The notes: generated from the letters alone by a model not told the origin. A DNA stretch of 64,000 bases from an uncultured Candidatus Saccharibacteria bacterium (GCA_965230995.1 OZ246398.1:73868-137867); one strand, 5' to 3'. Shown: positions 6,296-60,876, counted from the first letter of the stretch. Program-made: numbers and translations.

Positions 6296-6893
6296 AACGA
6301 CTTCGTTATTTTGTGCGCGCGGGAGGACTCGGTCACTCTCGTGGCTTTTTATTTCGTCCATTTGATGTTCCAGGACTCGGTCACGAATCACTAAGTCTGC
6401 TCATATTGCAAAGCAATATTGCGCGGACTAAGTGTTCGCGACCCCGCCTCACTTCTGAATTCTTTTTGGCAAAAAAGAATTCAGACTCCGCTTCGCTCCG
6501 TGCGTTCCGGCCTTCTCGTCCTGTCTCGAAACACCGGACAACAAAAAAGTGTACTAAGCGTACACTTTTTTGTTGTCAGTGCGCGTGCCAGGACTCGAAC
6601 CTTACAGGTTCAGTACCCCGATTGGATAATTACTTCGTCCTAGACGGACTCGTAATTATGCTCAATCGGGCTTCGAGTCCTGGACGAAAAGTCCCCCGGA
6701 CTTTTCTCACCAGCACAAAACAACTTCGTTATTTTGTGCGCGTGCCAGGACTCGAACCTTACAGGTTCAGTACCCCGATTGGATAATTACTTCGTCCTAG
6801 ACGGACTCGTAATTATGCTCAATCGGGCTTCGAGTCCTGGACGAAAAGTCCCCCGGACTTTTCTCACCAGCACAAAACAACTTCGTTATTTTG
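6296..6893 (-). repeat. tandem repeat array downstream of tRNA-Ile: two identical 157-bp units (6579-6735, 6736-6892) each ending in the 3' 22 nt of tRNA-Ile, plus degenerate older copies and long hairpins (6296-6578)
   Basis: Period 157 bp read directly from sequence (GTGCGCGTGCCAGGACTCGAACC recurs at 6579, 6736, 6893); degenerate GTGACCGAGTCCTCCCGCGCGCACAAAATAACGAAGTCG at ~6296-6330; 18-bp perfect hairpin 6541-6580; 14-bp palindrome 6456-6490. Confidence 0.85.
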
Positions 6894-6966
6894 TGCGCGT
6901 GCCAGGACTCGAACCTGGGACCACGGAGGTATAAGCTCCGCACTCTACCAACTGAGCTACACGCGC
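6894..6966 (-). tRNA. tRNA-Ile (anticodon UAU), no encoded CCA
   Basis: Reverse complement GCGCGUG-UA-GCUC-AGUUGGUA-GAGU-G-CGGAG-CUUAUAC-CUCCG-UGGUC-CCAGG-UUCGAGU-CCUGG-CACGCGC-A; canonical cloverleaf, U33, A37, anticodon UAU. Confidence 0.7.
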
Positions 6967-25755: not shown

Positions 25756-26526
25756 TTATATCTTTGTTAAAACGATTGGTCCGTCTTTTGTGATCGCAAC
25801 AGTATGTTCGAAATGTGCACTTCTCTTGCCGTCTGCTGTTTTGTAAGTGTAGCCATCATCTGCCAAAATTATCTTTCCTTTTCCTTCGCAAAGCATAGGT
25901 TCTATTGCAATGACCATACCGACAGTTATTTTTTCTCCTGTTCCTTTTTTACCTTTGTTTGGAACATAAGGATCTTCGTGAACCTCGTAACCAACACCGT
26001 GACCCGATAGACCTTCGGCAACTGACAATCCTGCTTTCTTTGCAATATTTCCGATCTCGTAACCAATATCACCAATATTTCCACCAATTCTTATTGCCTT
26101 TATACCAGCTTCGAGAGATTCTCTGGTTGTTTCAACAAGCGAAACAGCCTTTGGGTCTCCACTACCTGTAATAACAGTTCTGGCAGAATCCAAAATAAAA
26201 TTTTTATGAGCAAGACCCATATCGAGACTGACAACGTCCCCATCTTTTATAATCTTTTCTTTTTCGTTGGATATGCCGTGTACGATTTCATCATTTACAG
26301 AAACACAAAGCGCTGAAGGATAAGGGCGATCTGCTCCGTGAGGAGTGTAACCCAAAAAGGCACTCGAATCGCCATAATCTTTTACCATTTTTTCCGCTTT
26401 GTCATTTAATTCTCTTGCAGTAACACCTGGCACAACCATTTTTTCAAGCTCATTTAAAATCAAGGCCAATCTCTTGCCCCCCTCTTTCATTATTTCAATT
26501 TCTTTTTCTGTTTTAAGCCTGATCAT
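25756..26526 (-). CDS. map: methionine aminopeptidase type I
   Basis: 256 aa; pita-bread fold motifs (DGDVVSLDMG, HGIG-like VHGIS, FEHTVAI). Confidence 0.9.
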   Translation of the reverse strand: MIRLKTEKEIEIMKEGGKRLALILNELEKMVVPGVTARELNDKAEKMVKDYGDSSAFLGYTPHGADRPYPSALCVSVNDEIVHGISNEKEKIIKDGDVVSLDMGLAHKNFILDSARTVITGSGDPKAVSLVETTRESLEAGIKAIRIGGNIGDIGYEIGNIAKKAGLSVAEGLSGHGVGYEVHEDPYVPNKGKKGTGEKITVGMVIAIEPMLCEGKGKIILADDGYTYKTADGKRSAHFEHTVAITKDGPIVLTKI

Positions 26527-27130
26527 TAAATAATTTTGCTTTTAATTCCGAAAAGACGCCTTCAATATCCTGATTACCATTTACTTCTATGAATCTAAAC
26601 TTATTCTTATTTCTAAAATAATCAATAGCTGGAATTACAAACTCTCTGTACCAATCCATTCTCTTTTCAACATCGCTTATGAATTGATCGTCTTTTCTGC
26701 CTTCGGTATGTGCCCGATGGAGTATTCTCCTCTTTGATTCTTCGATATCTGTGTTTATAAATACAAGTGCTGGTCTATCTATACCATAGAAATCAAAAGC
26801 TGATTCCATCAATTGCGCGTCCTCAACCCTCCTCGGAGAACCATCAATTATTATGTGCTCGTCTCCTTTTATGTTATTTACTAGATAATCAACCCAAAGC
26901 ATAACTTGAAGAAAGCTTGGCTGAAGACCACCTTTTTTGTTTATCTCTCTCGATAGGTCTGCACTAAAACCAGTTCCATCCTTCCACATAGAACGAAACA
27001 AATCTCCCATCACTAGATTAACAATCGCCGTATCAGGGTCTTGCTTTGCTAAATATTCCTTGAGCAATTTAACCTGGGTGCCCTTTCCGCATCCCGAAGG
27101 TCCAAGAAACATTAGCGCAAGTCTTTTCAT
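26513..27130 (-). CDS. adk: adenylate kinase-like NMP kinase (paralog 1, short LID, no zinc motif)
   Basis: P-loop GPSGCGKGTQ, NMP-binding GDLFRS, IIDGSPRR; position after secY as in spc operon. Confidence 0.7.
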   Translation of the reverse strand: MKRLALMFLGPSGCGKGTQVKLLKEYLAKQDPDTAIVNLVMGDLFRSMWKDGTGFSADLSREINKKGGLQPSFLQVMLWVDYLVNNIKGDEHIIIDGSPRRVEDAQLMESAFDFYGIDRPALVFINTDIEESKRRILHRAHTEGRKDDQFISDVEKRMDWYREFVIPAIDYFRNKNKFRFIEVNGNQDIEGVFSELKAKLFNDQA

Positions 27131-27727
27131 TTATATATTTATTTTGCTTATTATTTCCTTGTGCACGTCTTCAATTGGTTGCTGTCCATTTACTTCGATG
27201 AAATGATAGTCTGGATTATTTCTGTAAAAATTTACAGCGGGTAGAACCATCGTGTCATACCAATTGACTCTTTTCTTTATGGCTTCTTCGGTATCGTCTT
27301 CTCTTTTTCTTGCGAGTAGTCTTTTGTGTGATTCTTCTTTTGAAACATCAATTACAATAAAATATGGCTTTTCTCTTTTGTAGAATTTCATAGCGGAATC
27401 AAGAGATTGTGCCTCTACAAGAGTTCTTGGTGAACCATCAATAAAAATATGCTCGTCACCTTTTATATTTTTCACGAAAGCTCCTGCCCAAAGCCAAACA
27501 GCGAGAAAATTAGGCTGAAGTTCGCCTCTTTTCATTATTTCATCTGATATGGTGCTTGAATAGTTGTCTTTTTTGTCTATAAATTCTCTAAATCCGTCAC
27601 CAGAATAGTAATTAAAAATATTTTCATTAGGAAATTTTTTAACGATATATTCATTTAATAATTTCCTTTGGGTGCCCTTTCCGCATCCCGATCTTCCTGC
27701 AAATATGAATGTGTGTTTTTTATCCAT
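27131..27727 (-). CDS. adk: adenylate kinase-like NMP kinase (paralog 2)
   Basis: GRSGCGKGTQ, GDGFRE, IDGSPRT; directly abuts paralog 1 (27130/27131). Confidence 0.7.
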   Translation of the reverse strand: MDKKHTFIFAGRSGCGKGTQRKLLNEYIVKKFPNENIFNYYSGDGFREFIDKKDNYSSTISDEIMKRGELQPNFLAVWLWAGAFVKNIKGDEHIFIDGSPRTLVEAQSLDSAMKFYKREKPYFIVIDVSKEESHKRLLARKREDDTEEAIKKRVNWYDTMVLPAVNFYRNNPDYHFIEVNGQQPIEDVHKEIISKINI

Positions 27728-31101: not shown

Positions 31102-31494
31102 TTACCAAACTTTTAATAGAAGTTCCCCGCCGACCTTTTGCTTTCGTGCTTCAGATCCAGACAAAATACCCTTTGGGGTAGTCATCACCAAAAGTCCAGC
31201 ACCGTTCTTTACTGGTCTTATCTCGCTAACTGAACCGTAGATTCTTTTTGAGAATTTAGAAACTTTTGATGTTCCTGTTATTTTTGGATTCTTTCCTTCG
31301 TATTTTAGAGTTATTACTATCGCTTTCTCAGAGACTTTTTTACCTTTTGTATCTACATCAGCAATGAAGCCTTCCTTTTTCAAGACTTCGCAAATCGCAA
31401 ATTTTATTTTTGAATATGGAACTTCGACGGTATCCTTTCGGACCACGCCGGCGTTCTTTATCCTTATCATCATGTCTGCTACAGAGTCGTTCAT
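31102..31494 (-). CDS. rpsH: 30S ribosomal protein S8
   Basis: DSVADMMIRIKNAG...GAGLLVMTTPKGILSGSEARKQKVGGELLLKVW. Confidence 0.9.
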   Translation of the reverse strand: MNDSVADMMIRIKNAGVVRKDTVEVPYSKIKFAICEVLKKEGFIADVDTKGKKVSEKAIVITLKYEGKNPKITGTSKVSKFSKRIYGSVSEIRPVKNGAGLLVMTTPKGILSGSEARKQKVGGELLLKVW

Positions 31495-31524
31495 AATATT
31501 ATTTCAAATTAAAGCAGGAAATTC

Positions 31525-31710
31525 CTACCACGATGACTTTTTAATACCTGGAATTACGCCTTCGTTTGCGTATTCCCTAAAACAGATTCGACACAAGTCG
31601 AAATCTCTCATAAAACCATTTGTTCGACCACATTTAAAACAACGATTTGTTCTTCGTGTGCTAAACTTTTGCTTCTTTTGCGATCTTGCAATTACTGATG
31701 TCTTTGCCAT
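31525..31710 (-). CDS. rpsN: 30S ribosomal protein S14 (zinc-binding type Z)
   Basis: 61 aa; CFKCGR...CRICFRE zinc ribbon. Confidence 0.9.
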   Translation of the reverse strand: MAKTSVIARSQKKQKFSTRRTNRCFKCGRTNGFMRDFDLCRICFREYANEGVIPGIKKSSW

Positions 31711-31879
31711 ATATGTTTTGATTGATAATTAAACAAAAATAGTCAACAAAAAGGGACTATTTTGCTTGTCTGCAATGTAGGATTGTAATCCAAACGCGCA
31801 GACTTCCCTTATGAAAGCGCCAAAACGCTTGGGTGATATACTACCATAATCAGAAAAAAGCGCAAGGAACCGCGCGCCT

Positions 31880-31902
31880 ACGGCGCGCGGTGGTTTAGGC
31901 CT
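31880..31902 (-). terminator. GC-rich hairpin terminator after inserted HExxH gene, upstream of rpsN
   Basis: ACCGCGCGCC-UAC-GGCGCGCGGU. Confidence 0.6.
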
Positions 31903-31909
31903 TAAAAAT

Positions 31910-32968
31910 CTATTCCGAAAGTAATCTTCTTACTGTTTTATGCCAGTCTTTTAGTTTCTTTAGACTTAGTAATGCAACAGCTTCTTCATTTGTATACCCA
32001 CCTTTTTTAATTAATTCATCAAATGCCTTAAAGGCAATTTCTAATTGTTTTTCATATTCACCAACAAGGGCACTGACAATTTTTTGATTTAGTTTATCGT
32101 TTTTCCCAGAGTTAATTAGACTAGCAATTTCTTCTGGAATATAAAAATAGACAGGAAGCGACCATGCAGTTTTATCAAATCTTAATAGTTTGTATATTTC
32201 TTCTGTTTCCTGATTCTCAGCCTTTTTTCTGACTAGAAACTCATCTTTTGCCTGTTCAAGCATAAATTCCTTTATGGAACGTATGTCTTTTATTGTATTT
32301 TCATCAATCTCTTTATTTATAAGTAAGGATACGGCAAGTCGAATTTTTGCTGAAAAATAATCATTAAGGGCAGCAGTACCATTTATAGCAACATAAAGCA
32401 GATAATTGCCGACGTGACCAACTTCATGAGCAACTGTAGATTGATATTCTTCTGAATCCTTATCCACGAGAAATTCTGAGACAAAAGATGGGTCTAGACG
32501 GTTGGAATTTTCTTTAATTTTCTTTGCAAGTAGTACCAATCTATCCTCGTCCTTTGTCAGTTCCTTTCGGGCAGAAAATATAACAGGTACAACGCGACCA
32601 GCAAACTCTCTAAAAACCATTAATCCTCCTCGAGATCTACCACTTGCACTATCAAAAAAAGGAGAGTCATTTTCTATATGAATATATGTAGAATGAAATG
32701 TCACTTTCGCATTTAATAATTGATTGTACTCTGCGGTTTCTGAAAGCATTCCTAATATTTCTGTTTCTGTGTATTTATTTTTTAAAAACAATAAATCAAA
32801 AAAGAATTCCTCTAGTCTACTGAACCACCTAAGCATCTTCTCTCTATCATTTTTAAACAAAAGCTTATGGTCTTCGAGATGCATAATTGCTTCAAATAAA
32901 ATACTAGAAAATTCTTCTTTTGTAACATCATCAGGAATACTATCAATGGCTTTTTCAACATCCATCAA
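31910..32968 (-). CDS. hypothetical protein with HExxH motif (possible metallopeptidase-like), inserted inside the spc ribosomal operon
   Basis: 352 aa; AHEVGHVGNY motif; no other recognisable domain. Confidence 0.4.
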   Translation of the reverse strand: MMDVEKAIDSIPDDVTKEEFSSILFEAIMHLEDHKLLFKNDREKMLRWFSRLEEFFFDLLFLKNKYTETEILGMLSETAEYNQLLNAKVTFHSTYIHIENDSPFFDSASGRSRGGLMVFREFAGRVVPVIFSARKELTKDEDRLVLLAKKIKENSNRLDPSFVSEFLVDKDSEEYQSTVAHEVGHVGNYLLYVAINGTAALNDYFSAKIRLAVSLLINKEIDENTIKDIRSIKEFMLEQAKDEFLVRKKAENQETEEIYKLLRFDKTAWSLPVYFYIPEEIASLINSGKNDKLNQKIVSALVGEYEKQLEIAFKAFDELIKKGGYTNEEAVALLSLKKLKDWHKTVRRLLSE

Positions 32969-33058
32969 AAGGGCACCAAAAACTTCTAGCTCATCATTTG
33001 CTAGTTTTACAACATCTTTTACGTGTTCTCTTCTCTCTTTTTTAGGTAGTTTTAGTAT

Positions 33059-33250
33059 TTAATTTAAAGCCTCTTTTGCTGTCATAGTATATTGAGACTT
33101 GTCTTTACTATGTAGTCGTTCAACAGTAGTGGTAATTAATTTACTTGTAGGTTTAATTGGGTTCCCTATATCTTCTTCGTCTCCAGAGGTCCTTTTTGGT
33201 CCATTCTCGCTTGTAATCTTGTTTGTTGGTATCTTGTCTAACATATACAC
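33059..33250 (-). CDS. small hypothetical ORF (63 aa) upstream of HExxH gene
   Basis: ORF only; low complexity; may be non-coding. Confidence 0.2.
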   Translation of the reverse strand: MYMLDKIPTNKITSENGPKRTSGDEEDIGNPIKPTSKLITTTVERLHSKDKSQYTMTAKEALN

Positions 33251-33270
33251 ATATTAGCATTTTAATATAC

Positions 33271-33300
33271 AAACAAAAAATACCCCGCTTTTGCGGAGTA
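33271..33300 (-). terminator. terminator after rplE
   Basis: AAAAAAUACCCCGC-UUUU-GCGGAGUAUUUUUU (one mismatch in stem). Confidence 0.55.
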
Positions 33301-33313
33301 TTTTTTGTTTTGA

Positions 33314-33859
33314 TTATTTAACTTGAGCTTTTTTGAAAGGAAAACCTAGGTGTTTAAAGAATTCGAGAGCTTGTTTTTTGTCTTTTGCTGTTGTTACGAA
33401 AGTAATTGCCATCCCGAATATATCTCTAACGTCTTCGTCTGCTGTTTCTGGGAAGATTGTATGTTCTTTGATTCCCAATGTGTAGTTTCCGATATCATCG
33501 ATTGAAGATTCAGATATTCCTCGGAAGTCTTTTGTTCGAGGAAGAGCAGTAAGAAGAAGCCTGTCAACGAAAGCCTCCATTCTTGTACCTCTCAAGGTAA
33601 CCTGATAGCCAACAATATCACCTTGTCTCAATTTGAATGTAGCAATAGACATTCTAGCTGGTCTTCCAGCTGGCTTTTGTCCTGTGATTTTTGCAAGTCT
33701 GTCCTGAATAAGCTTCATCTTGTTCTTGTCTTTTACAGAACCGACTCCAACGCTCACAATAACCTTTGAAAGTTTTGGAGCTTGCATAGGGTTCTTTAGC
33801 CCCAATGTATCTTTGAGAACTTTAAAGCTTGTATTGTTTTTTTCTTTTGTTATAGACAT
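33314..33859 (-). CDS. rplE: 50S ribosomal protein L5
   Basis: 181 aa, LKNPMQAPKLSKVIVSVGVG...ITFVTTAK conserved L5. Confidence 0.9.
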   Translation of the reverse strand: MSITKEKNNTSFKVLKDTLGLKNPMQAPKLSKVIVSVGVGSVKDKNKMKLIQDRLAKITGQKPAGRPARMSIATFKLRQGDIVGYQVTLRGTRMEAFVDRLLLTALPRTKDFRGISESSIDDIGNYTLGIKEHTIFPETADEDVRDIFGMAITFVTTAKDKKQALEFFKHLGFPFKKAQVK

Positions 33860-33873
33860 ATTCAGTTTGAAAA

Positions 33874-34179
33874 TTATATCGTTGCTGAGCTTTTCTTTGC
33901 GATTCTTTCTTTTTTGTCTCCGTTTACTTTGTAACCAATTCTAGTTCCTTTTTTTGTTTTAGGATCTACAATCATTACGTTTGAAACGTGAATAGGCATT
34001 GTCACTTCGACAATCTGGCCTTTTCCGCCTTTCTTTGTTTTTTTCTTGTGGACTTTTCTGACATTAACACCTTCGATTACTACCCTGTCTTCTTTTGGAA
34101 GTGCGTGAACAACCTTTCCAGACTTTCCTTTGTCCTTTCCGGCTATCACTATTACGTTGTCGTCTTTCTTGATTTTCAT
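33874..34179 (-). CDS. rplX: 50S ribosomal protein L24 (start at MKIKKDD; ORF track extends to 34266)
   Basis: KOW motif VIVIAGKDKGKSGKV. Confidence 0.85.
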   Translation of the reverse strand: MKIKKDDNVIVIAGKDKGKSGKVVHALPKEDRVVIEGVNVRKVHKKKTKKGGKGQIVEVTMPIHVSNVMIVDPKTKKGTRIGYKVNGDKKERIAKKSSATI

Positions 34180-34186
34180 AATGTTT

Positions 34187-34558
34187 TTATACAACCTCTG
34201 GCGCAAGGGAAATAATCTTCTGGAAACCAGCCTCTCCCACTTCTCTTGGGATTGGGCCGAAGACACGTCCTGCGATAGGTTCTTTCTTTATCTTTTCTAC
34301 CAAAACGACGGCGTTTTCATCGAATCTAACGTATGATCCGTCCTTTCGTCTGATTGGTCTCTTTGTTCGTACCACAACGGCTCGGACAACTTCTTTTTTC
34401 TTTACGCCTTTTCGTGGTTCTGCCTTTTGTATTGAAATGACTACGAGTTCACCAACTTCTGCCCATCTCTTTTTTGATGAACCAAGCACTTTGAAAATTC
34501 GTCCTATCTTGGCGCCAGAGTTGTCGGCTATTTTAACTATTGATCGTGGCTGAATCAT
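34187..34558 (-). CDS. rplN: 50S ribosomal protein L14
   Basis: MIQPRSIVKIADNSGAK... Confidence 0.95.
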   Translation of the reverse strand: MIQPRSIVKIADNSGAKIGRIFKVLGSSKKRWAEVGELVVISIQKAEPRKGVKKKEVVRAVVVRTKRPIRRKDGSYVRFDENAVVLVEKIKKEPIAGRVFGPIPREVGEAGFQKIISLAPEVV

Positions 34559-34562
34559 ATTA

Positions 34563-34823
34563 TTAAATTACTTTAAAAGTCTTTGTTTTTGAAATTGGCT
34601 TTACTTCGACAATTGTAACTGTTTCGCCAATTTTCTTTGTATTACCAGCATCGTGTGCTTTTATTCTTTTGCTTCTCTTTATGAATTTCTGATATTTTGG
34701 ATGTTTTACATATCGTCCAACTTCGACAACAATAGTGTCTTTCATTTTGTCAGAAACAACCATACCTTTGAATGTTTTCTGGCTTTTTATCTCTGTATTA
34801 TTATTTGAAGCTGTTTTTGTCAT
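34563..34823 (-). CDS. rpsQ: 30S ribosomal protein S17
   Basis: [20 protein letters not shown]...[19 protein letters not shown]. Confidence 0.9.
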
Positions 34824-34824
34824 A

Positions 34825-35007
34825 TTATGCCTTTCTTGAATTTAATTCTGTAAGAAGTCTTGCTATATCTTTTTTCAAGTTCTTGCCAAGTTTTACATTT
34901 CTAGTCTTGCTTCCAGAGAGATCAAAACGAAACTGCCTTAGTTCGGCTTTCTTATCCCTTATATCCTTTAGGATATCTTTATCTGATTTTTTGCTGATCT
35001 CTTTCAT
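34825..35007 (-). CDS. rpmC: 50S ribosomal protein L29
   Basis: 60 aa helical, [15 protein letters not shown].. Confidence 0.85.
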
Positions 35008-35050
35008 AATAAGCTACTAGACTACATTATTTATCTAAAAAACACAATGG

Positions 35051-35476
35051 TTAAGCTCTGACTACGAATTTTACCTTTACAGGGAGCTTTGCTCCTGCTT
35101 TTCGAAGCGCTTCTTTTGCAACCTCTTCAGAAACACCATCTACTTCAAACAAAACGTTTCCTGCCAAAACTGGGGCAACATAACCCTGAAGGTCTCCCTT
35201 TCCTTTTCCGAGTTTAACTTCGGCTGGCTTTTGTGTATAAGGCATATCAGGGAAAACTCTAACCCAAAGCTTTCCTGCTTTTCCGATTGTTCTTGAAACA
35301 ACCTTTCTTGCAGATTCAAGCTGGTTTGATTTTATTCGTCCCATCTCTGTTGCTTTGATACCGTATGAACCAAAAGAAACTTTTGTTCCTCTTGTGGCGT
35401 TACCAACACGGCTAGGATTTCGCCTAAATGTGTGCCACTTTCGATGTTTAACTTTCTTTGGAAAAAATTGTGACAT
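35051..35476 (-). CDS. rplP: 50S ribosomal protein L16
   Basis: KKVKHRKWHTFRRNPSRVGNATRGTKVSFG... Confidence 0.95.
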   Translation of the reverse strand: MSQFFPKKVKHRKWHTFRRNPSRVGNATRGTKVSFGSYGIKATEMGRIKSNQLESARKVVSRTIGKAGKLWVRVFPDMPYTQKPAEVKLGKGKGDLQGYVAPVLAGNVLFEVDGVSEEVAKEALRKAGAKLPVKVKFVVRA

Positions 35477-35481
35477 GGTAA

Positions 35482-36150
35482 TTAATTATTCTTTTCTTTT
35501 GCAAAAATATCACCTTTGTATATCCAAACCTTGATACCAATCACTCCATAAGGAAGGTTGGCTCGATATCTGGCAAAATCAACATTGGCTCGGATCGTTT
35601 GAAGAGGAATTCGGCCCTTTTTCATTTTTTCTGTTCTAGCCATTTCTGCTCCTCCAAGTCTTCCGCCCATTTCAAATCTAGCACCCAAGACTTCTCTGTT
35701 TGCCATTACCTTTTCAATCATTTGCTTCATTACTCTTCGGAAAGGAAGTCTTTTTTCGAGTCCTTCTGCAATCATTTCTCCTACAATTCTTGCATTTCCT
35801 TCTGGATTTCGAATTTCTTTTACATCAAGCCTAAGCTCTTCTGTTCCGAGAACATTCTTCTTTCGAAGTTCTTTTGTGATTTCGTCTCGCAATTTTTGAG
35901 CACCTTCTCCGCTTCTTCCGATAACGAGTCCCGGTCTTCCTGTTTCGATAATAATTCGAAGATATTTCTGGCTTCTTTCTATCTCGATATTACCGACGCT
36001 CATATTTCGAAGTCTCTTTTCGAGATATTCTCTTATAACAATGTCACCCCTTAGGTTCTTTTTGTAGGCATCTTTTACGCCGAACCAACGACTTTTCCAG
36101 TCTTTTATTACTCCGAGTCTATGTGAATATGGGTGAACTGTATGTGACAT
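35482..36150 (-). CDS. rpsC: 30S ribosomal protein S3
   Basis: VHPYSHRLGVIKDWKSRWFG..KH domain.. Confidence 0.95.
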   Translation of the reverse strand: MSHTVHPYSHRLGVIKDWKSRWFGVKDAYKKNLRGDIVIREYLEKRLRNMSVGNIEIERSQKYLRIIIETGRPGLVIGRSGEGAQKLRDEITKELRKKNVLGTEELRLDVKEIRNPEGNARIVGEMIAEGLEKRLPFRRVMKQMIEKVMANREVLGARFEMGGRLGGAEMARTEKMKKGRIPLQTIRANVDFARYRANLPYGVIGIKVWIYKGDIFAKEKNN

Positions 36151-36169
36151 ATTTGTTTATAATTTTCGA

Positions 36170-36625
36170 TTATTTAGTTTCTTTTTTTGCTTTTGTAGTC
36201 TTTCTTGTAGTGGTCTTTTTTACTTTTGTCGCAACTGTTTTCTTTTCTACTGTTTTCTTTTCTTTGGCTTCTGGCTTTTTTTCTTTTGGAGCCTCGGTTG
36301 ATTCAAGAGTAACTTTGAGGTGGCTTGTTCTCTTTCTGATTGGGAAAGCTCTACCTCTTGCTCTTTCCATTCGTCTCATCATTACAATTCCCTTGTCGAC
36401 TGTTAGATTCTTTACGACTAGAGATTCTTCGGAATATCCGAGTGTCTTTGCATTTGAAACCGCAGAAAGGATAAGTTTTTTAACTGGATCAGAAGCTCTC
36501 TTTGGAAGAAGAGAAAGTCTTGAGACAGCGTTTGCAATCTTTTTTCCTTTTACATAATCAGCAACAAGTCGCACCTTTCTAGGAGACTGTCTGTAGTTTT
36601 TAAGTTGTGCTGTAATATATGACAT
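36170..36625 (-). CDS. rplV: 50S ribosomal protein L22 with Lys/Thr-rich C-terminal extension
   Basis: AQLKNYRQSPRKVRLVADYVKGKKIANAV... Confidence 0.9.
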   Translation of the reverse strand: MSYITAQLKNYRQSPRKVRLVADYVKGKKIANAVSRLSLLPKRASDPVKKLILSAVSNAKTLGYSEESLVVKNLTVDKGIVMMRRMERARGRAFPIRKRTSHLKVTLESTEAPKEKKPEAKEKKTVEKKTVATKVKKTTTRKTTKAKKETK

Positions 36626-36634
36626 AATCCTTTA

Positions 36635-36973
36635 TTATTTAGATGCTGTTGTAGCCTTTGCTGATTGTGCTGCAGTAATTTCTGCCTGCTTCTTTGCGGC
36701 ATCAATTTCCTTTTGCATTTTACCTCCATGTCTGTGGAATGTTCGTGTAAGTGAAAATTCACCCAATCTGTGTCCAACCATTTCTTCTGTAACCAATACT
36801 TCGATATGAGTCTTTCCGTTGTGAACACCAAAAGTGAAACCTACCATTTCTGGAGATATTTGGCATGCTCTTGACCAAGTTTTAATAACCCCAGTTTCTC
36901 TTGGGTTCTTGCCGAGAACTTTATTTAGGACTCGTTCATCTACATATGGTCCTTTTTTTAGCGACCTAGTCAT
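36635..36973 (-). CDS. rpsS: 30S ribosomal protein S19 with C-terminal extension
   Basis: [16 protein letters not shown]...[17 protein letters not shown]. Confidence 0.9.
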
Positions 36974-37128
36974 TTGATTGCGTTTCGTAAATTAAAATGC
37001 CCCTACATAGAGCTGGGCTACATAGTAGCAAAAAATAAAAATGTGTCAAACGAAAAAACGGTTTTTTATATAAAACAGAAACACCCCACAAGGAGGAGGG
37101 GGTGTCCCTGCCCTTTTGGGGTGTAAAT

Positions 37129-37356
37129 TCACTTTTTGATTTCGAACCCGAAATCGTCTGCGAGTTTGATTACCTCGCTAGAGTCCGGGTTTTCCGCCAG
37201 CATCGCGCCAACTTTCATTGACGCATCCTTGTGGTTTGGGGAACACCCAAACACCTTTCTGAACCGCTTGAGTCGGGAATACCTCCTCGAGCGGGTGAGG
37301 CCGTAAACGGCCTGCATGAGAATCATCCCGGCAATGACAGCCAACACATAAAGCAT
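37129..37356 (-). CDS. small hypothetical protein with N-terminal TM helix, in GC-rich island 3 inserted between rpsS and rplB
   Basis: 75 aa; GC-rich codons; TATAAT promoter on minus strand (~37395-37400) and GAGGT RBS; GC hairpin downstream (~37090-37115). Confidence 0.35.
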   Translation of the reverse strand: MLYVLAVIAGMILMQAVYGLTRSRRYSRLKRFRKVFGCSPNHKDASMKVGAMLAENPDSSEVIKLADDFGFEIKK

Positions 37357-37445
37357 AGTTTACCTCGGGTTTTGGTTTCTGGCTTAGTTTCTCCGCTACA
37401 TATTATAACACACTCATTTTAAAAAAGCAACAGCGCGTAGCACTT

Positions 37446-38099
37446 CTAGTTTTCTAAAATATCTAGAAATTCCAGCTCTTTTTGAATCTTTTTCTCGTAT
37501 TCTTTTAAAAATTCTATGTAATCGACAGCAATTTGTTTTGCCTTTTCGATATGAAAAATAGGCATATAATCACGAATATTTGTCCTTATGTCATCTAAAA
37601 TGCTTTTGGGATCTGCGTATGTTGATTCTGGATTAATGCTGTATAAATAGTTATGTTCATATATGGGTAAATGGGGTGAAAATTGCCCAGATCTTATGAT
37701 TACAGAAGGTGATAGGTTTGCTAATTTATCAGAATCTTGGAGTATTTTTTGGGTCTCTGATTTATGTTCCGGAGAAATATGCGAATGCTCAAGGACTGCA
37801 AAATATATCTCTTGTTTTTCAGATTCAGAAAAATTATCTCCTGTCATTTCAATCATTTCTTTTACTTTTTTTGATACGCTATCACTCGAAACCAGTCTAT
37901 CGATAGAATGAATGAGGCCTGCGACAAAAGCAGTATTTGCAGTTTTTTCGTCACCAGCAATTTTTAGAGCATAGCTCGCAACAGAGATATCATGATCAAA
38001 GCCGTGTCCCCTATTCTTTTTTTCTGAAGTCTTGTGCAAATCTGATATCGCTTCGTATAGATTTTTGTACTTTTCCTTTAATTCTTTAAATGTGGGCAT
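37446..38099 (-). CDS. HD-domain phosphohydrolase-like protein inserted in the S10 operon between rplB and rpsS
   Basis: 217 aa; H..HD motif HGFDHDISVASYALKIA, additional His/Asp downstream. Confidence 0.55.
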   Translation of the reverse strand: MPTFKELKEKYKNLYEAISDLHKTSEKKNRGHGFDHDISVASYALKIAGDEKTANTAFVAGLIHSIDRLVSSDSVSKKVKEMIEMTGDNFSESEKQEIYFAVLEHSHISPEHKSETQKILQDSDKLANLSPSVIIRSGQFSPHLPIYEHNYLYSINPESTYADPKSILDDIRTNIRDYMPIFHIEKAKQIAVDYIEFLKEYEKKIQKELEFLDILEN

Positions 38100-38109
38100 T
38101 GATTTATTA

Positions 38110-38135
38110 TAACAAAAAGACCCCGCAGGGTCTTT
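38110..38135 (-). terminator. terminator after rplB
   Basis: AAAAGACCC-CGCA-GGGUCUUUUU. Confidence 0.7.
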
Positions 38136-38140
38136 TTGTT

Positions 38141-38980
38141 TTATTTCTTTCCAACTTTTCGTCTTCGAACAACAAGATAATTTGAGTATTTCTTTGGAGT
38201 TCTTGATTTCTGTCCTTTTCCTGTTGGTTTTCCGTAAATAGAGATTGCTCGTCTTCGTCCTCGTCCCTGTCTTCCTTCTCCACCACCATGTGGGTGATCA
38301 ACTGGGTTCATTGCAGTACCTCTAACTGTTGGTCTTATACCCTTCCATCTGCTTCTTCCGGCCTTTCCGAGATTAACCAAATGATGCTCTTCGTTTGAAA
38401 CCTGTCCGATTGATGCCCATGCTGTATCTAGAATTTTTCTTACTTCAGATGAAGGCATTTTGATATGAGCATAACCACCATCGTGAGCAATGACTTCAGC
38501 GTAGTTTCCGGCTGATCTTGCCAATTTTGCTCCACCAAGAGGTTTGACTTCGACATTGTATACAAATGTACCAACCTGAATATATTTGAGCTGTGCTCTG
38601 TTTCCTGGTTTGAGAGGGGCTTCTTTTGAGACAATCAATTCTTCACCGACTTTTACAGTCTGAGGCAAAAGGGTGTATCTCTTTTCTCCGTCTTTGTAAT
38701 TTACAAGACCGATGAAACCAGATCGGTTTGGATCGTATTCTACTGAAACAACCTTGAAAGGAATATCAATTTTGTCCATCTTGAAATCAACAAGTCGGTA
38801 TAGTTTTTTGTGTCCTGCACCCTTGTGTCTTGTGTTGATTCTACCTGTATTTCCCCTTCCTACTGATCGCTTGTAACCTTTTGTAAGAGACTTGATTGGC
38901 TCTGCCACTGTCAAAACCTTTCGGTAATTAATACCGGTCATATTTCGACGTGAAGGTGATGTTGGTTTATAGGTTTTCAT
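38141..38980 (-). CDS. rplB: 50S ribosomal protein L2
   Basis: 279 aa; GRNxxGxITxRHxGGGHK-type motifs (RHKGAGHKKLYR), C-terminal PVDHPHGGGEGR. Confidence 0.95.
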   Translation of the reverse strand: MKTYKPTSPSRRNMTGINYRKVLTVAEPIKSLTKGYKRSVGRGNTGRINTRHKGAGHKKLYRLVDFKMDKIDIPFKVVSVEYDPNRSGFIGLVNYKDGEKRYTLLPQTVKVGEELIVSKEAPLKPGNRAQLKYIQVGTFVYNVEVKPLGGAKLARSAGNYAEVIAHDGGYAHIKMPSSEVRKILDTAWASIGQVSNEEHHLVNLGKAGRSRWKGIRPTVRGTAMNPVDHPHGGGEGRQGRGRRRAISIYGKPTGKGQKSRTPKKYSNYLVVRRRKVGKK

Positions 38981-40706: not shown

Positions 40707-40832
40707 CCCGTTTGTATTAATTTGCTATGCGCTAATTTTCATAAAGTTCACAGCCAAGTTATGAACTTTGAAACATTAATTAGCTTATTTCCGAGCCCTC
40801 TTTGAGAAGAGCTCGGATAAAGCTCGTTAATG

Positions 40833-41213: not shown

Positions 41214-42407
<1,194 letters not shown>

Positions 42408-42640
42408 ATAAATTATTATTAATTGATTAACTAAGAGAAGTGAGCGCGCGAGAAAGGCTCAGTACTCCCAATTAATTCTGATAATTCTTATAAATTCTGT
42501 GCTTTCGTTTGAATGATAACAAACAAAAACAACGCAAAATGCGGTACCGCCCATAATAGCAGAAAGCAAGAGAGTGTCAATAGGATTAAAGGGTTTTTCT
42601 GATTTTTTTGATACTTTTGAAAATTAGAAAAATGAGCAAA

Positions 42641-42667
42641 AGAAAAAAACCGGCTTTCGCCGGTTTT
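42641..42667 (-). terminator. terminator after fusA
   Basis: AAAAAAACCGGC-UUUC-GCCGGUUUUUUU. Confidence 0.75.
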
Positions 42668-42673
42668 TTTCTT

Positions 42674-55478: not shown

Positions 55479-55513
55479 TTGACATAATTAAACGCCTAGT
55501 GTAAAGTCATGCA
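55479..55513 (+). promoter_or_regulatory. strong sigma70-like promoter of GC-rich island 5 (TTGACA-N17-TG-TAAAGT)
   Basis: TTGACATAATTAAACGCCTAGTGTAAAGT. Confidence 0.5.
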
Positions 55514-55812
55514 CAGAAAAGCCCGACAGCAATCGGGGTGAAGCACCAAAAACATTAACTGGCGGTCTAGCGTCCAAAGCAAGGACGTAGAGTGCACAAA
55601 GCCTAAGGGAAGCAAGGCAGTGCACCCCATTAGACGGGATATGGGCGTAAGTGACGCCCAGCCTACAAGTGAACTGACAGGCACTTGTTCAGCTTCCCAT
55701 GTGAAGAACTCTTTCTGTTGTGGACGGTCCAATCCCGTTGAAACAGAAGAGACGTATTGGTAGGAGAATTACCAATGTCAAAAAAATCTCCGGGCGGTTT
55801 GCTGACTGCCCG

Positions 55813-55861
55813 TCTGTCGCAGGATGGTTCCTGCCTGATGAGCCAATAATGGCGAAACAGA
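55813..55861 (+). ncRNA. hammerhead ribozyme copy 1, type III topology (closed stems I and II, open stem III), predicted cleavage after C55818
   Basis: UCUGU-C^-GCAGG-AUGGUU-CCUGC-CUGAUGA-GCCA-AUAA-UGGC-GAAAC-AGA; all catalytic-core nucleotides present. Confidence 0.8.
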
Positions 55862-56125
55862 ATATTTACCGTCGAGGACAACTCTTAACTGCTCGGGCGC
55901 ACGTGCACGATCGTAGGTCGGACGTGAACCACGCACATAAATAGAGACAACAAGGTATTGTGCTGAAAAGGCTTCGGGTAAGTGCCAGCTGTTTGCTGAG
56001 TAACTAACGGACACCCTTAGTAGGCAACCTCGCGGAGGATAGAATCTCTACTATCCCGTTGGTGTGACCATCGACAATAGTCACAAAAATTTTTGGAGAT
56101 GGTTTGCAAACACCTTCCATCTCCA

Positions 56126-56176
56126 TTCTGTCGCAGGATGGTTCCTGCCTGATGAGCCAATAATGGCGAAACAGAA
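56126..56176 (+). ncRNA. hammerhead ribozyme copy 2, type III, predicted cleavage after C56132
   Basis: 52 nt identical to copy 1 (UCUGUCGCAGGAUGGUUCCUGCCUGAUGAGCCAAUAAUGGCGAAACAGAA); stem III UUCUGU/ACAGAA. Confidence 0.8.
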
Positions 56177-56207
56177 ACAATTCCTTTGTAACTATTGGGA
56201 GGTTTGT

Positions 56208-60475: not shown

Positions 60476-60527
60476 AAGTTACAATCAGTTATTGCTACAA
60501 GCAATATTCTATGATATAATATAAAAA

Positions 60528-60838
60528 CCTGTTAGATAGACGCGGGGCGTAAGCTCTGAGGAAAGTCCGAACACAGCCAAGTATTTTACTTGGAGCAAGG
60601 TAGTGGGTAACACCCATCTGTCGAAAGACACGAGGTGCGAGCAGTGACGCCAAAGGCGAAAGCCCTAGGATTCCTTTGGGAATAATTTGATAGAAATATC
60701 AAAGTGAAACGGCTAAATCCTTATCCCTGTGCAAGGCCGTGCCGGTCGCAAGATCGGAGTGCCGCTTGAGCCGGCAAGTAATTGCCGGCCTAGATTAATG
60801 GCTATCCACGACAGAATTCGGCTTACAGACAGGCATAT
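60528..60838 (+). ncRNA. rnpB: RNase P RNA (bacterial type A-like, reduced)
   Basis: P4 strands GAGGAAAGUCCGAAC (60558-) and ACAGAAUUCGGCUUAC (60811-60826); GGUAAC loop (GUGGGUAACACCCAU), GUGAAACGG, GGUGCGAGCAGUGACGCC; TATAAT at 60515-60520; P1 CCUGU/ACAGG; terminator 60841-60868. Confidence 0.8.
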
Positions 60839-60876
60839 GAAAACCGCAAGCGTTCCGCTTGCGGTTTTCTCTTTGA

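Follow-up and report, generated by a model that had tools for sequence, protein, structure and literature searches.

Spacers with predicted promoters in the str-S10-spc cluster as probable slots for accessory gene cassettes in an uncultured bacterium and its relatives

The S10-spc cluster of ribosomal protein (r-protein) genes is the textbook example of a gene order frozen since before the split between bacteria and archaea, and it serves as a syntenic block for placing bacteria of the candidate phyla radiation (CPR). Some rearrangements of this region are well known, such as the joining of rpsJ to the str operon (tufA-rps10), apart from rplC, in cyanobacteria and plastids, or the extra genes that mycobacteria carry between their S10 and spc operons. 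In E. coli, the S10 leader carries an attenuator at which termination is stimulated by L4 and NusA, and 5'-terminal hairpins that act as stabilisers are also known. Hotspots of horizontal gene transfer between conserved core genes were reportedly described by Oliveira, Touchon, Cury and Rocha in 2017. Closest to the case presented here is the invasion and separation described in Gammaproteobacteria and Bacilli for spacers between operons of this cluster, with overlap between terminators and promoters (Brandis; 2019, PMC6735719, and 2021, PMC8046335), and rplB is mentioned in neither of these two papers. Here we analyze a stretch of 64,000 nucleotides (the window) from an uncultured Candidatus Saccharibacteria bacterium (GCA_965230995.1 OZ246398.1:73868-137867), in which the cluster is broken between rplB and rpsS and again between rplE and rpsN. 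We argue that the str-S10-spc cluster is probably a chain of separately promoted units, the spacers between them acting as permissive slots for self-contained accessory cassettes.

Recurrent break points in the cluster

The region is coded entirely on the minus strand, to which the coordinates of the cluster given below refer. The genes run in the order fusA, tuf, rpsJ, rplC, rplD, rplW and rplB, followed by a first insert with an HD-domain gene and a small open reading frame (ORF) for a transmembrane (TM) protein; then rpsS, rplV, rpsC, rplP, rpmC, rpsQ, rplN, rplX and rplE, followed by a second insert with a gene for an HExxH protein; and then rpsN, rpsH, rplF, rplR, rpsE, rplO, secY and two adk genes. 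The latter are adenylate-kinase paralogs in tandem (26513-27130 and 27131-27727), and rpmD is absent from the ribosomal gene order of the window. The genes at the borders of the inserts were identified by Pfam, in agreement with the sequence-only reading from which this work departed, which had described both junctions as split by non-ribosomal genes: rplB (38141-38980; N- and C-terminal domains of L2, E 1e-29 and 6e-49), rpsS (36635-36973; S19, E 3e-32), rplE (33314-33859; L5 domains) and rpsN, of the short zinc-ribbon type (31525-31710; S14, E 3.5e-21). The non-ribosomal DNA amounts to 1,167 bp at rplB|rpsS and 1,603 bp at rplE|rpsN, each with a predicted terminator (z -7.5 and -8.7), and at these two junctions the window departs from the canonical S10/spc arrangement, in which the genes are contiguous, the spacers short and internal terminators absent.

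The spacers of related bacteria were measured in a survey anchored on S3, for which 80 species-representative and 80 metagenome loci were taken with flanks of up to 10 kb, the r-protein genes were placed by tblastn, and the 160 loci were collapsed to 140 lineages at <97% S3 nucleotide identity. The nearest species representatives were metagenome-assembled genomes of Parcubacteria/Paceibacteria, with at most 70% S3 identity, and the nearest metagenome fragment, with 86% S3 identity, was only 1.5 kb long. Spacers above 300 bp were found at rplB|rpsS in 53 of 77 lineages (69%, with a maximum of 7.8 kb), at rplE|rpsN in 35 of 80 (44%) and at rpsJ|rplC in 24 of 58 (41%), so the same intervals are occupied in many independent lineages and the neighboring ones are not. 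The corresponding figures were 12/54 at secY|adk, 5/52 at tuf|rpsJ, and 25/30 at fusA|tuf, where the uninterrupted state already measures around 270 bp and the spacers were measured from the C-terminus of EF-G only, since EF-G matches EF-Tu. The other 16 junctions pooled gave one case, of 306 bp. At rpsQ|rplN, the classical S10|spc boundary, 0 of 113 loci were interrupted, the median spacer was 10 nt and the promoter motif described below appeared in 0%.

Separation goes further in some relatives. A further 16 lineages had rplE followed by no rpsN for at least 2.5 kb, and around 10 had rpsS without rplB in the preceding 3-9 kb, which indicates that the rpsS-rplE block is fully detached in lineages without nearby rplB or rpsN. 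Loci L080, L144, L154, L156, L075 and L070, among others, carry a lone rpsS-rplE block, with rplB absent for 7.8-9.3 kb upstream, and in L080, L144 and L154 rpsN is also absent for around 7.8 kb downstream of the block. The lineage-specific operon architecture that had been suggested for the window is supported by these break points, which recur among the relatives.

We propose that in this small-genome, Parcubacteria/Paceibacteria-like lineage the units would be ...fusA | tuf-rpsJ | rplC-rplD-rplW-rplB | rpsS...rplE | rpsN...secY | adk, with each cassette placed between the terminator of the preceding unit and the promoter of the next one. The inter-unit spacers would accept foreign or relocated genes with the essential downstream genes still being expressed, and because insertion would leave this expression intact, the spacers would have become recurrent accessory slots of fast turnover. 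This proposal supposes that the motifs described below fire, that the hairpins terminate, and that insertion is tolerated rather than targeted.

Predicted terminators, promoters and leaders at the unit borders

Terminator hairpins were folded as RNA and are given with their energies and z-scores, promoter and terminator function being deduced from the sequence alone. A scan of the region yielded 24 terminator sites, versus 9.7 expected. The predicted terminator after rplB (38108-38143) has a 13-bp stem, with -19.8 kcal/mol and z -7.5, and looks bidirectional because A- and U-tracts flank the stem on both sides. That after rplE (33271-33310) has 18-bp arms, with -24.4 kcal/mol and z -8.7, and the one after the HExxH gene, which would close the second insert (around 31851-31903), has an inner GC stem (31869-31891) followed by U6, with -25.1 kcal/mol and z -2.9. 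These three had been proposed in the sequence-only reading, which had not listed a fourth one after the small TM gene (37071-37124), where a GC-rich hairpin followed by UUUCUGUUUU, with -26.5 kcal/mol and z -3.2, would close the first insert. Between the HD gene and the small TM gene no convincing terminator was found by RNA folding (z +1.0). No Rfam family was detected in the spacers, either at the gathering threshold over the whole window or at the E-value threshold over 31400-38300, apart from weak terminator look-alikes.

Promoter-like sites were found ahead of the units that follow the inserts. The sequence TTGACA-16-TGcTACTAT (37022-37049), located 48 nt ahead of the rpsS start codon, is a strong match, and TTGCGC-16-TGgTAGTAT (31838-31865) is a weaker candidate for rpsN, whose -10 and following hairpin align with the rpsN leaders of relatives. 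The -35 of this candidate overlaps the U-tract of the HExxH-gene terminator, and its 5' untranslated region would be around 120 nt long. These matches favor the earlier suggestion that new internal promoters serve rpsS and rpsN. A further match, TTGACA-16-TGcTATTAT (42553-42580), lies ahead of tuf (41214-42407) and is preceded by a predicted fusA terminator (around 42644-42672). No strong promoter match was found ahead of rplC in the window, though rpsJ|rplC is a frequent slot in relatives; the 126-nt rpsJ|rplC spacer of the window holds a hairpin, CCGAGC-13 nt-GCUCGG, without a U-tract (40791-40822).

The inserted genes have promoter-like sites as well. An extended -10, TGtTATAAT (38106-38114), lies 6 nt before the HD ATG and is contained in the U-tract and 3' arm of the terminator that follows rplB, and another one, TGcTAATAT (33251-33259), lies 6 nt before the ATG at 33244 of the HExxH gene, a leaderless geometry. 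When ORFs of 50 aa or more were counted over the 64-kb window, TGnTAnnnT stood 6-7 nt ahead of the ATG in 14 cases, and every other spacing from 0 to 15 nt gave 0-2 cases. From this count, leaderless mRNAs made at extended -10 promoters appear to be a common and normal mode of expression in this genome, and both genes leading the cassettes are among the 14. Ahead of the small TM gene lie TTGCTT-17-TGtTATAAT (37402-37430) and a GAGG Shine-Dalgarno sequence (37366-37363). Slot 1 (rplB|rpsS) would then contain an HD gene with a leaderless-type extended -10, next to a small TM gene that carries a separate promoter, Shine-Dalgarno site and terminator, and slot 2 (rplE|rpsN) a single HExxH gene, now split by a TAA, with a leaderless-type promoter and its own terminator.

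The promoter motif was then scored in the relatives as TTGACn-N16-18-TAnnnT within 200 nt upstream of each gene. It was found ahead of rpsS in 100 of 111 cases (90%), of rpsN in 60 of 80 (75%), of tuf in 25 of 50 (50%), of rplC in 17 of 66 (26%) and of rpmC in 8 of 111, with 0-3% in all the remaining genes and 0% in other genes when TG was required at -15/-14. With a stricter 13-point score, the frequencies for rpsS and rpsN were 92% and 56% in uninterrupted loci and 72% and 51% in interrupted ones. Over the two ways of scoring, the motif is conserved ahead of rpsS in 81-90% and ahead of rpsN in 54-75% of the lineages. As the motif is as frequent in uninterrupted relatives, the promoters appear to be independent of insertion, and those of rpsS and rpsN most likely pre-date the insertions, which would have been placed in spacers that were already unit boundaries. 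Uninterrupted rplB|rpsS and rplE|rpsN spacers measure around 90 nt, versus 5-20 nt elsewhere, and contain, in this order, the stop codon, an occasional terminator, the promoter, the leader and the start codon. Terminator-like hairpins followed rplB in 17%, rplE in 29%, rpsJ in 14% and secY in 17% of cases, versus 0-8% at junctions never interrupted. The borders of the slots, judged by consensus matches, combine a strongly conserved promoter motif downstream with an enrichment in terminators upstream, and the junctions with predicted promoters are exactly those that accept cargo.

A short hairpin followed by a U-run was also frequent within 48 nt past the -10 of these promoter matches (rpsS 55%, rpsN 67%, tuf 47%), compared with 10% at other promoter-like sites in the same 2 Mb and 2-10% in shuffled leaders; around one third of 37 matches first counted as belonging to other leaders were in fact longer leaders of tuf, rpsS or rpsN. 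Its sequence is often AAGCU(C)...(G)AGCUU or ACGC...GCGU. In the window, the rpsS leader hairpin is GCCC..GGGC followed by AUUUUAAUUU (36999-37018), weak when taken alone (z -0.6) and supported by the enrichment across lineages, and it is homologous to the leader in L089, the nearest relative holding the region. Weak versions lie in the leaders of tuf (hairpin and U-run, 42515-42552) and rpsN (AAGCG..CGCUU, 31815-31830). The hairpin matched no Rfam family, and RNAalifold on a MAFFT alignment of the rpsN leaders gave no consensus structure, the 3' arms being misaligned owing to loops of variable length; support for it comes from enrichment versus shuffles and versus other promoters, not from covariation. 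The hairpin may serve for weak attenuation, for stabilisation of the 5' end or for the binding of a shared regulator. We also entertain, with more doubt than confidence, that the slots and their borders could make up an expression architecture organized across the lineage. The whole promoter-plus-leader module (TTGACn-N17-TGnTAGTAT, AGCU-type hairpin, U-run) at the head of the tuf, rpsS and rpsN units would then be an undescribed cis-regulatory RNA, either an attenuator or a site for a binding factor, that coordinates the translation genes of Paceibacteria and insulates the units for swaps of accessory genes.

Cargo of the slots and its possible origin

The content of the slots was compared among the first 80 loci, whose gaps hold 224 ORFs of 50 aa or longer. 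Of these, 189 had no relative in any other gap, and the few shared families connect close relatives only. Pfam matches for 123 gap ORFs of at least 100 aa were a mixed set: PemK/MazF (in three), SocA and HTH; the nuclease domains DUF559 (in three), REase_MTES_1575 (in two) and GIY-YIG (in one); TruD, pyrimidine 5'-nucleotidase, QueF, MsrB and MOSC; CHASE2 adenylate cyclase, response regulators and histidine kinase; radical SAM and methyltransferases; and pilin-like proteins, PIF1 helicase and haemolysin-III. Two gap ORFs at rplB|rpsS matched Pfam Ribosomal_L10 (best E 8e-18), and some lineages may thus have received in this slot a ribosomal gene that belonged to a different operon. Lineages with 96-98% identity over S3+L16+L14 differ in slot size, for example with 238, 553 and 1115 bp at rplB|rpsS and 1448 versus 353 bp at rplE|rpsN. 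Cargo is, then, of unrelated kinds in different lineages, and it is replaced even among close relatives.

Such a pattern brings up the main rival to tolerated insertion, namely that mobile elements, homing nucleases or a recombinase use a recognition site at the junctions (the terminator or the promoter-leader hairpin), which would make them active integration hotspots. The insertion positions are extremely specific, a conserved hairpin and U-run stands at the right-hand border of most slots, the cargo includes the toxin, antitoxin and nuclease genes just listed (PemK/MazF, SocA, DUF559, REase_MTES_1575, GIY-YIG), and the small TM gene of the window is compositionally foreign (third-position GC content, GC3, of 0.67). 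However, purifying selection against insertions that break co-transcription explains the specificity equally well, and the borders and recombinases give no positive support. A search of the window for direct repeats flanking the inserts was negative, and in 103 occupied slots the longest common substring between left and right borders was 7-8 nt, versus 7 nt in shuffled controls, that is, at chance level. Neither the inserts of the window (searched with Pfam, NCBIfam and PADLOC) nor the Pfam families listed for the 123 gap ORFs include a recombinase, transposase or integrase, so the recombinase gene and the flanking repeats, att sites or terminal inverted repeats that characterize transposons, integrons and integrative elements were not found in these searches, and cargo of 0.3 to 7.8 kb has no shared backbone gene. 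We consider targeted integration unlikely; with tolerated insertion, illegitimate recombination would bring in the cargo, or else the conserved r-protein genes on either side would allow homologous exchange.

Slot 1 of the window begins with a stand-alone HD-domain protein of 217 aa (37446-38099; PF01966 with 25.4 bits versus a cut-off of 22), with a weak match to NCBIfam PRK10119. Its AF2 model (pLDDT 81) gave Foldseek matches to 2pjq, 2qgs, 5dqv (YpgQ) and 3gw7 (YedJ), with TM-scores around 0.6, and the invariant residues, in keeping with an H...HD...D metal-binding motif, are H32, D35/H36, H64, D67, H105 and D122/D124; on this model, the protein is an HD-domain metal-dependent phosphohydrolase with a YedJ/YpgQ-like all-helical fold. 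Only five relatives, with 33-45% identity, were found among 5.8 billion clusters, and three homologs that could be read in context sit amid glycosyltransferase, aminotransferase and epimerase genes, none adjoining ribosomal genes. A pair resembling a diversity-generating retroelement (reverse transcriptase and bAvd) lies around 6 kb from an HD-protein homolog, by the glycosylation cluster, in L002 (103-1652) and L004 (101-1652).

The second gene of slot 1 (37129-37356) encodes 75 aa with an N-terminal hydrophobic TM helix. The GC richness remarked upon in the sequence-only reading was borne out, with a GC content of 0.52 and a GC3 of 0.67, versus 0.22-0.33 in all its neighbors; the gene was probably acquired not long ago from a donor with a higher GC content. 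No homologs were found in Pfam, NCBIfam, PADLOC, viral contigs, phage records or plasmids, and its exact sequence is absent from the proteins of a 15-billion-sequence collection.

Slot 2 had been read as a small ORF and a separate 352-aa protein. Both belong to one gene of 444 codons (31910-33244), cut by an in-frame TAA (33059-33061), since they share a single frame and the family hidden Markov model (HMM) spans the stop: an N-terminal piece of 61 codons (33062-33244) is followed by the TAA, 30 codons and the 352-aa ORF (31910-32968). The HMM, built with the query left out, is collinear over the stop (family 'peeELekikslpkeerkea' versus window 'AKEALN*ILKLPKKERREH'). With this model, a score of 7.1 bits was obtained for the N-terminal 125 residues, a value reached by 0 of 1000 shuffles. 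When only the 92 residues that precede the 352-aa ORF were taken, the score was 3.4 bits, reached by 7 of 1000; family members measure 430-480 aa. The TAA may reflect decay, a sequencing error or read-through.

The 352-aa protein had looked like an orphan, as it found only itself among the 5.8 billion clusters, and this was discarded when an exhaustive HMMER search revealed a weak family of 22 relatives (E 3e-7 to 9e-4), aligned mainly over its C-terminal third; a word-index profile search added only two further members. The protein carries HEVGH at residues 181-185, and H181, E182, H185, E243 (in a KDE motif) and W342 are invariant in an alignment of 14 members. No Pfam match was found, a profile search against the PDB was empty, and the AF2 model (pLDDT 40.6) was unusable. 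The gene belongs to an uncharacterized HExxH family and may encode a zinc metallopeptidase with a gluzincin-like HExxH...E pattern. Two family homologs that could be read in context, on short contigs, do not adjoin r-protein genes.

A different explanation would give the inserted genes a function within the ribosomal operons, with shared regulation and expression by read-through, the HD and HExxH proteins acting on ribosomes or nucleotides. The inserts are co-oriented with the r-protein genes, as are around 73% of the gap ORFs of at least 100 aa in relatives, the interval between the HD and small TM genes is devoid of a terminator, and HD phosphohydrolases of the YpgQ/YedJ type act on nucleotides according to the descriptions given by the structure depositors. 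Nevertheless, the four inserted ORFs of the window had no homolog in any of the 160 related loci by tblastn, and this lack of conservation largely refutes the idea. The sequence-only reading had itself pointed to conserved operon membership in relatives as the outcome that would refute its interpretation, and the opposite was found (0/160 loci, with 189/224 gap ORFs being singletons). Also, the HD homologs sit in glycosylation clusters, strong predicted terminators stand between the preceding r-protein genes and the cassettes, a promoter-like site belongs to each cassette, and the HExxH gene has an in-frame stop, all of which makes operon membership very unlikely. No defense-system match was given by PADLOC for any of the four inserted ORFs.

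Having in mind that all the data come from metagenome assemblies, chimeric contigs could have fused r-protein fragments to unrelated DNA. We regard such an assembly or binning artifact as extremely improbable, given that the pattern returns at the same junctions in over 100 independent assemblies produced by different studies, that predicted terminators and promoters are intact at the borders, and that the HD and HExxH proteins are recorded on five contigs (NCBI, Logan), the longest of 742,714 bp.

Several observations weigh against a chain of separately promoted units with permissive spacers. A canonical terminator follows rplB or rplE in only 17-29% of cases, so read-through between units is probably common. 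The rpsJ|rplC junction is often interrupted, yet a recognizable promoter precedes rplC in only around 26%. In the window itself, the candidate rpsN promoter has a poor -35 (3/6) and lies around 130 nt upstream of rpsN. The PemK/MazF, SocA, DUF559 and GIY-YIG cargo can belong to selfish elements. Finally, the sampled relatives form a single clade, with 61-86% S3 identity, and the slots are hot relative to the rest of the r-protein cluster, the comparison being made within the cluster only.

Other RNA features were found in the window away from the cluster. Two identical matches to type III hammerhead ribozymes lie on the plus strand at 55811-55863 and 56125-56177, 314 nt apart, with scores of 47.7 and 43.1 bits, just below the Rfam cut-off of 48.5 (E 2e-8 and 4e-7). 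The 1.1 kb in which they are placed is devoid of long ORFs and follows a promoter-like site at 55479, and a possible degenerate third copy is found at 55729-55748. A bacterial class A RNase P RNA (60524-60841, plus strand), missed by the default Rfam scan, scored 99.3 bits versus a gathering score of 100, with a TGnTATAAT promoter-like site at 60492. A tRNA-Ile with anticodon TAT (UAU), an uncommon route for reading AUA in bacteria, lies at 6893-6966 on the minus strand.

Comparison with known systems

These data support that, in a large CPR clade, a cluster taken as frozen is partitioned at non-canonical points, which are among the most variable places of otherwise minimal genomes. This offers a handle on the gain and loss of accessory genes in streamlined symbionts, and a caution for annotators and for phylogenomic pipelines that require contiguous blocks of r-protein genes. 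The predicted promoters, leaderless starts and leader motif can be tested with public metatranscriptomes. We know of no earlier description of variable cargo breaking the cluster at rplB|rpsS and rplE|rpsN, and full-text searches of the literature gave no account of this slot pattern in CPR bacteria.

Regarding the leaders, the hairpin and U-run described here resemble the S10 leader of E. coli in their position, in the 5' leader of an r-protein operon just past the promoter. They differ from it in that the hairpin has 4-8 bp, begins around 5-10 nt after the predicted start and is common to three units (tuf, rpsS and rpsN). With respect to gene order, the tuf-rpsJ | rplC break mirrors the cyanobacterial arrangement, and shows that the cluster can be re-partitioned.

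The slots share with the hotspots of horizontal gene transfer their fixed intervals, conserved core flanks and diverse, fast-changing content, and many such hotspots are likewise devoid of recognizable mobile-element genes. Unlike those, the slots lie inside the most conserved gene cluster known, in genomes smaller than 1 Mb, and coincide with conserved, predicted strong promoters of ribosomal units.

The pattern corresponds to the inter-operon invasion of Gammaproteobacteria and Bacilli: in both cases a few unrelated genes enter spacers between translation operons, separation is complete in some lineages, and a terminator overlaps or abuts the next promoter, as predicted in the window at 31851-31865 and 38106-38143. 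In contrast, the breaks at rplB|rpsS, rplE|rpsN and rpsJ|rplC fall inside what are the S10 and spc operons of E. coli and Bacillus, their occupancy is far higher, reaching 41-69% of the lineages, and their turnover is faster, in such a way that it is visible between relatives with 96-98% r-protein identity.

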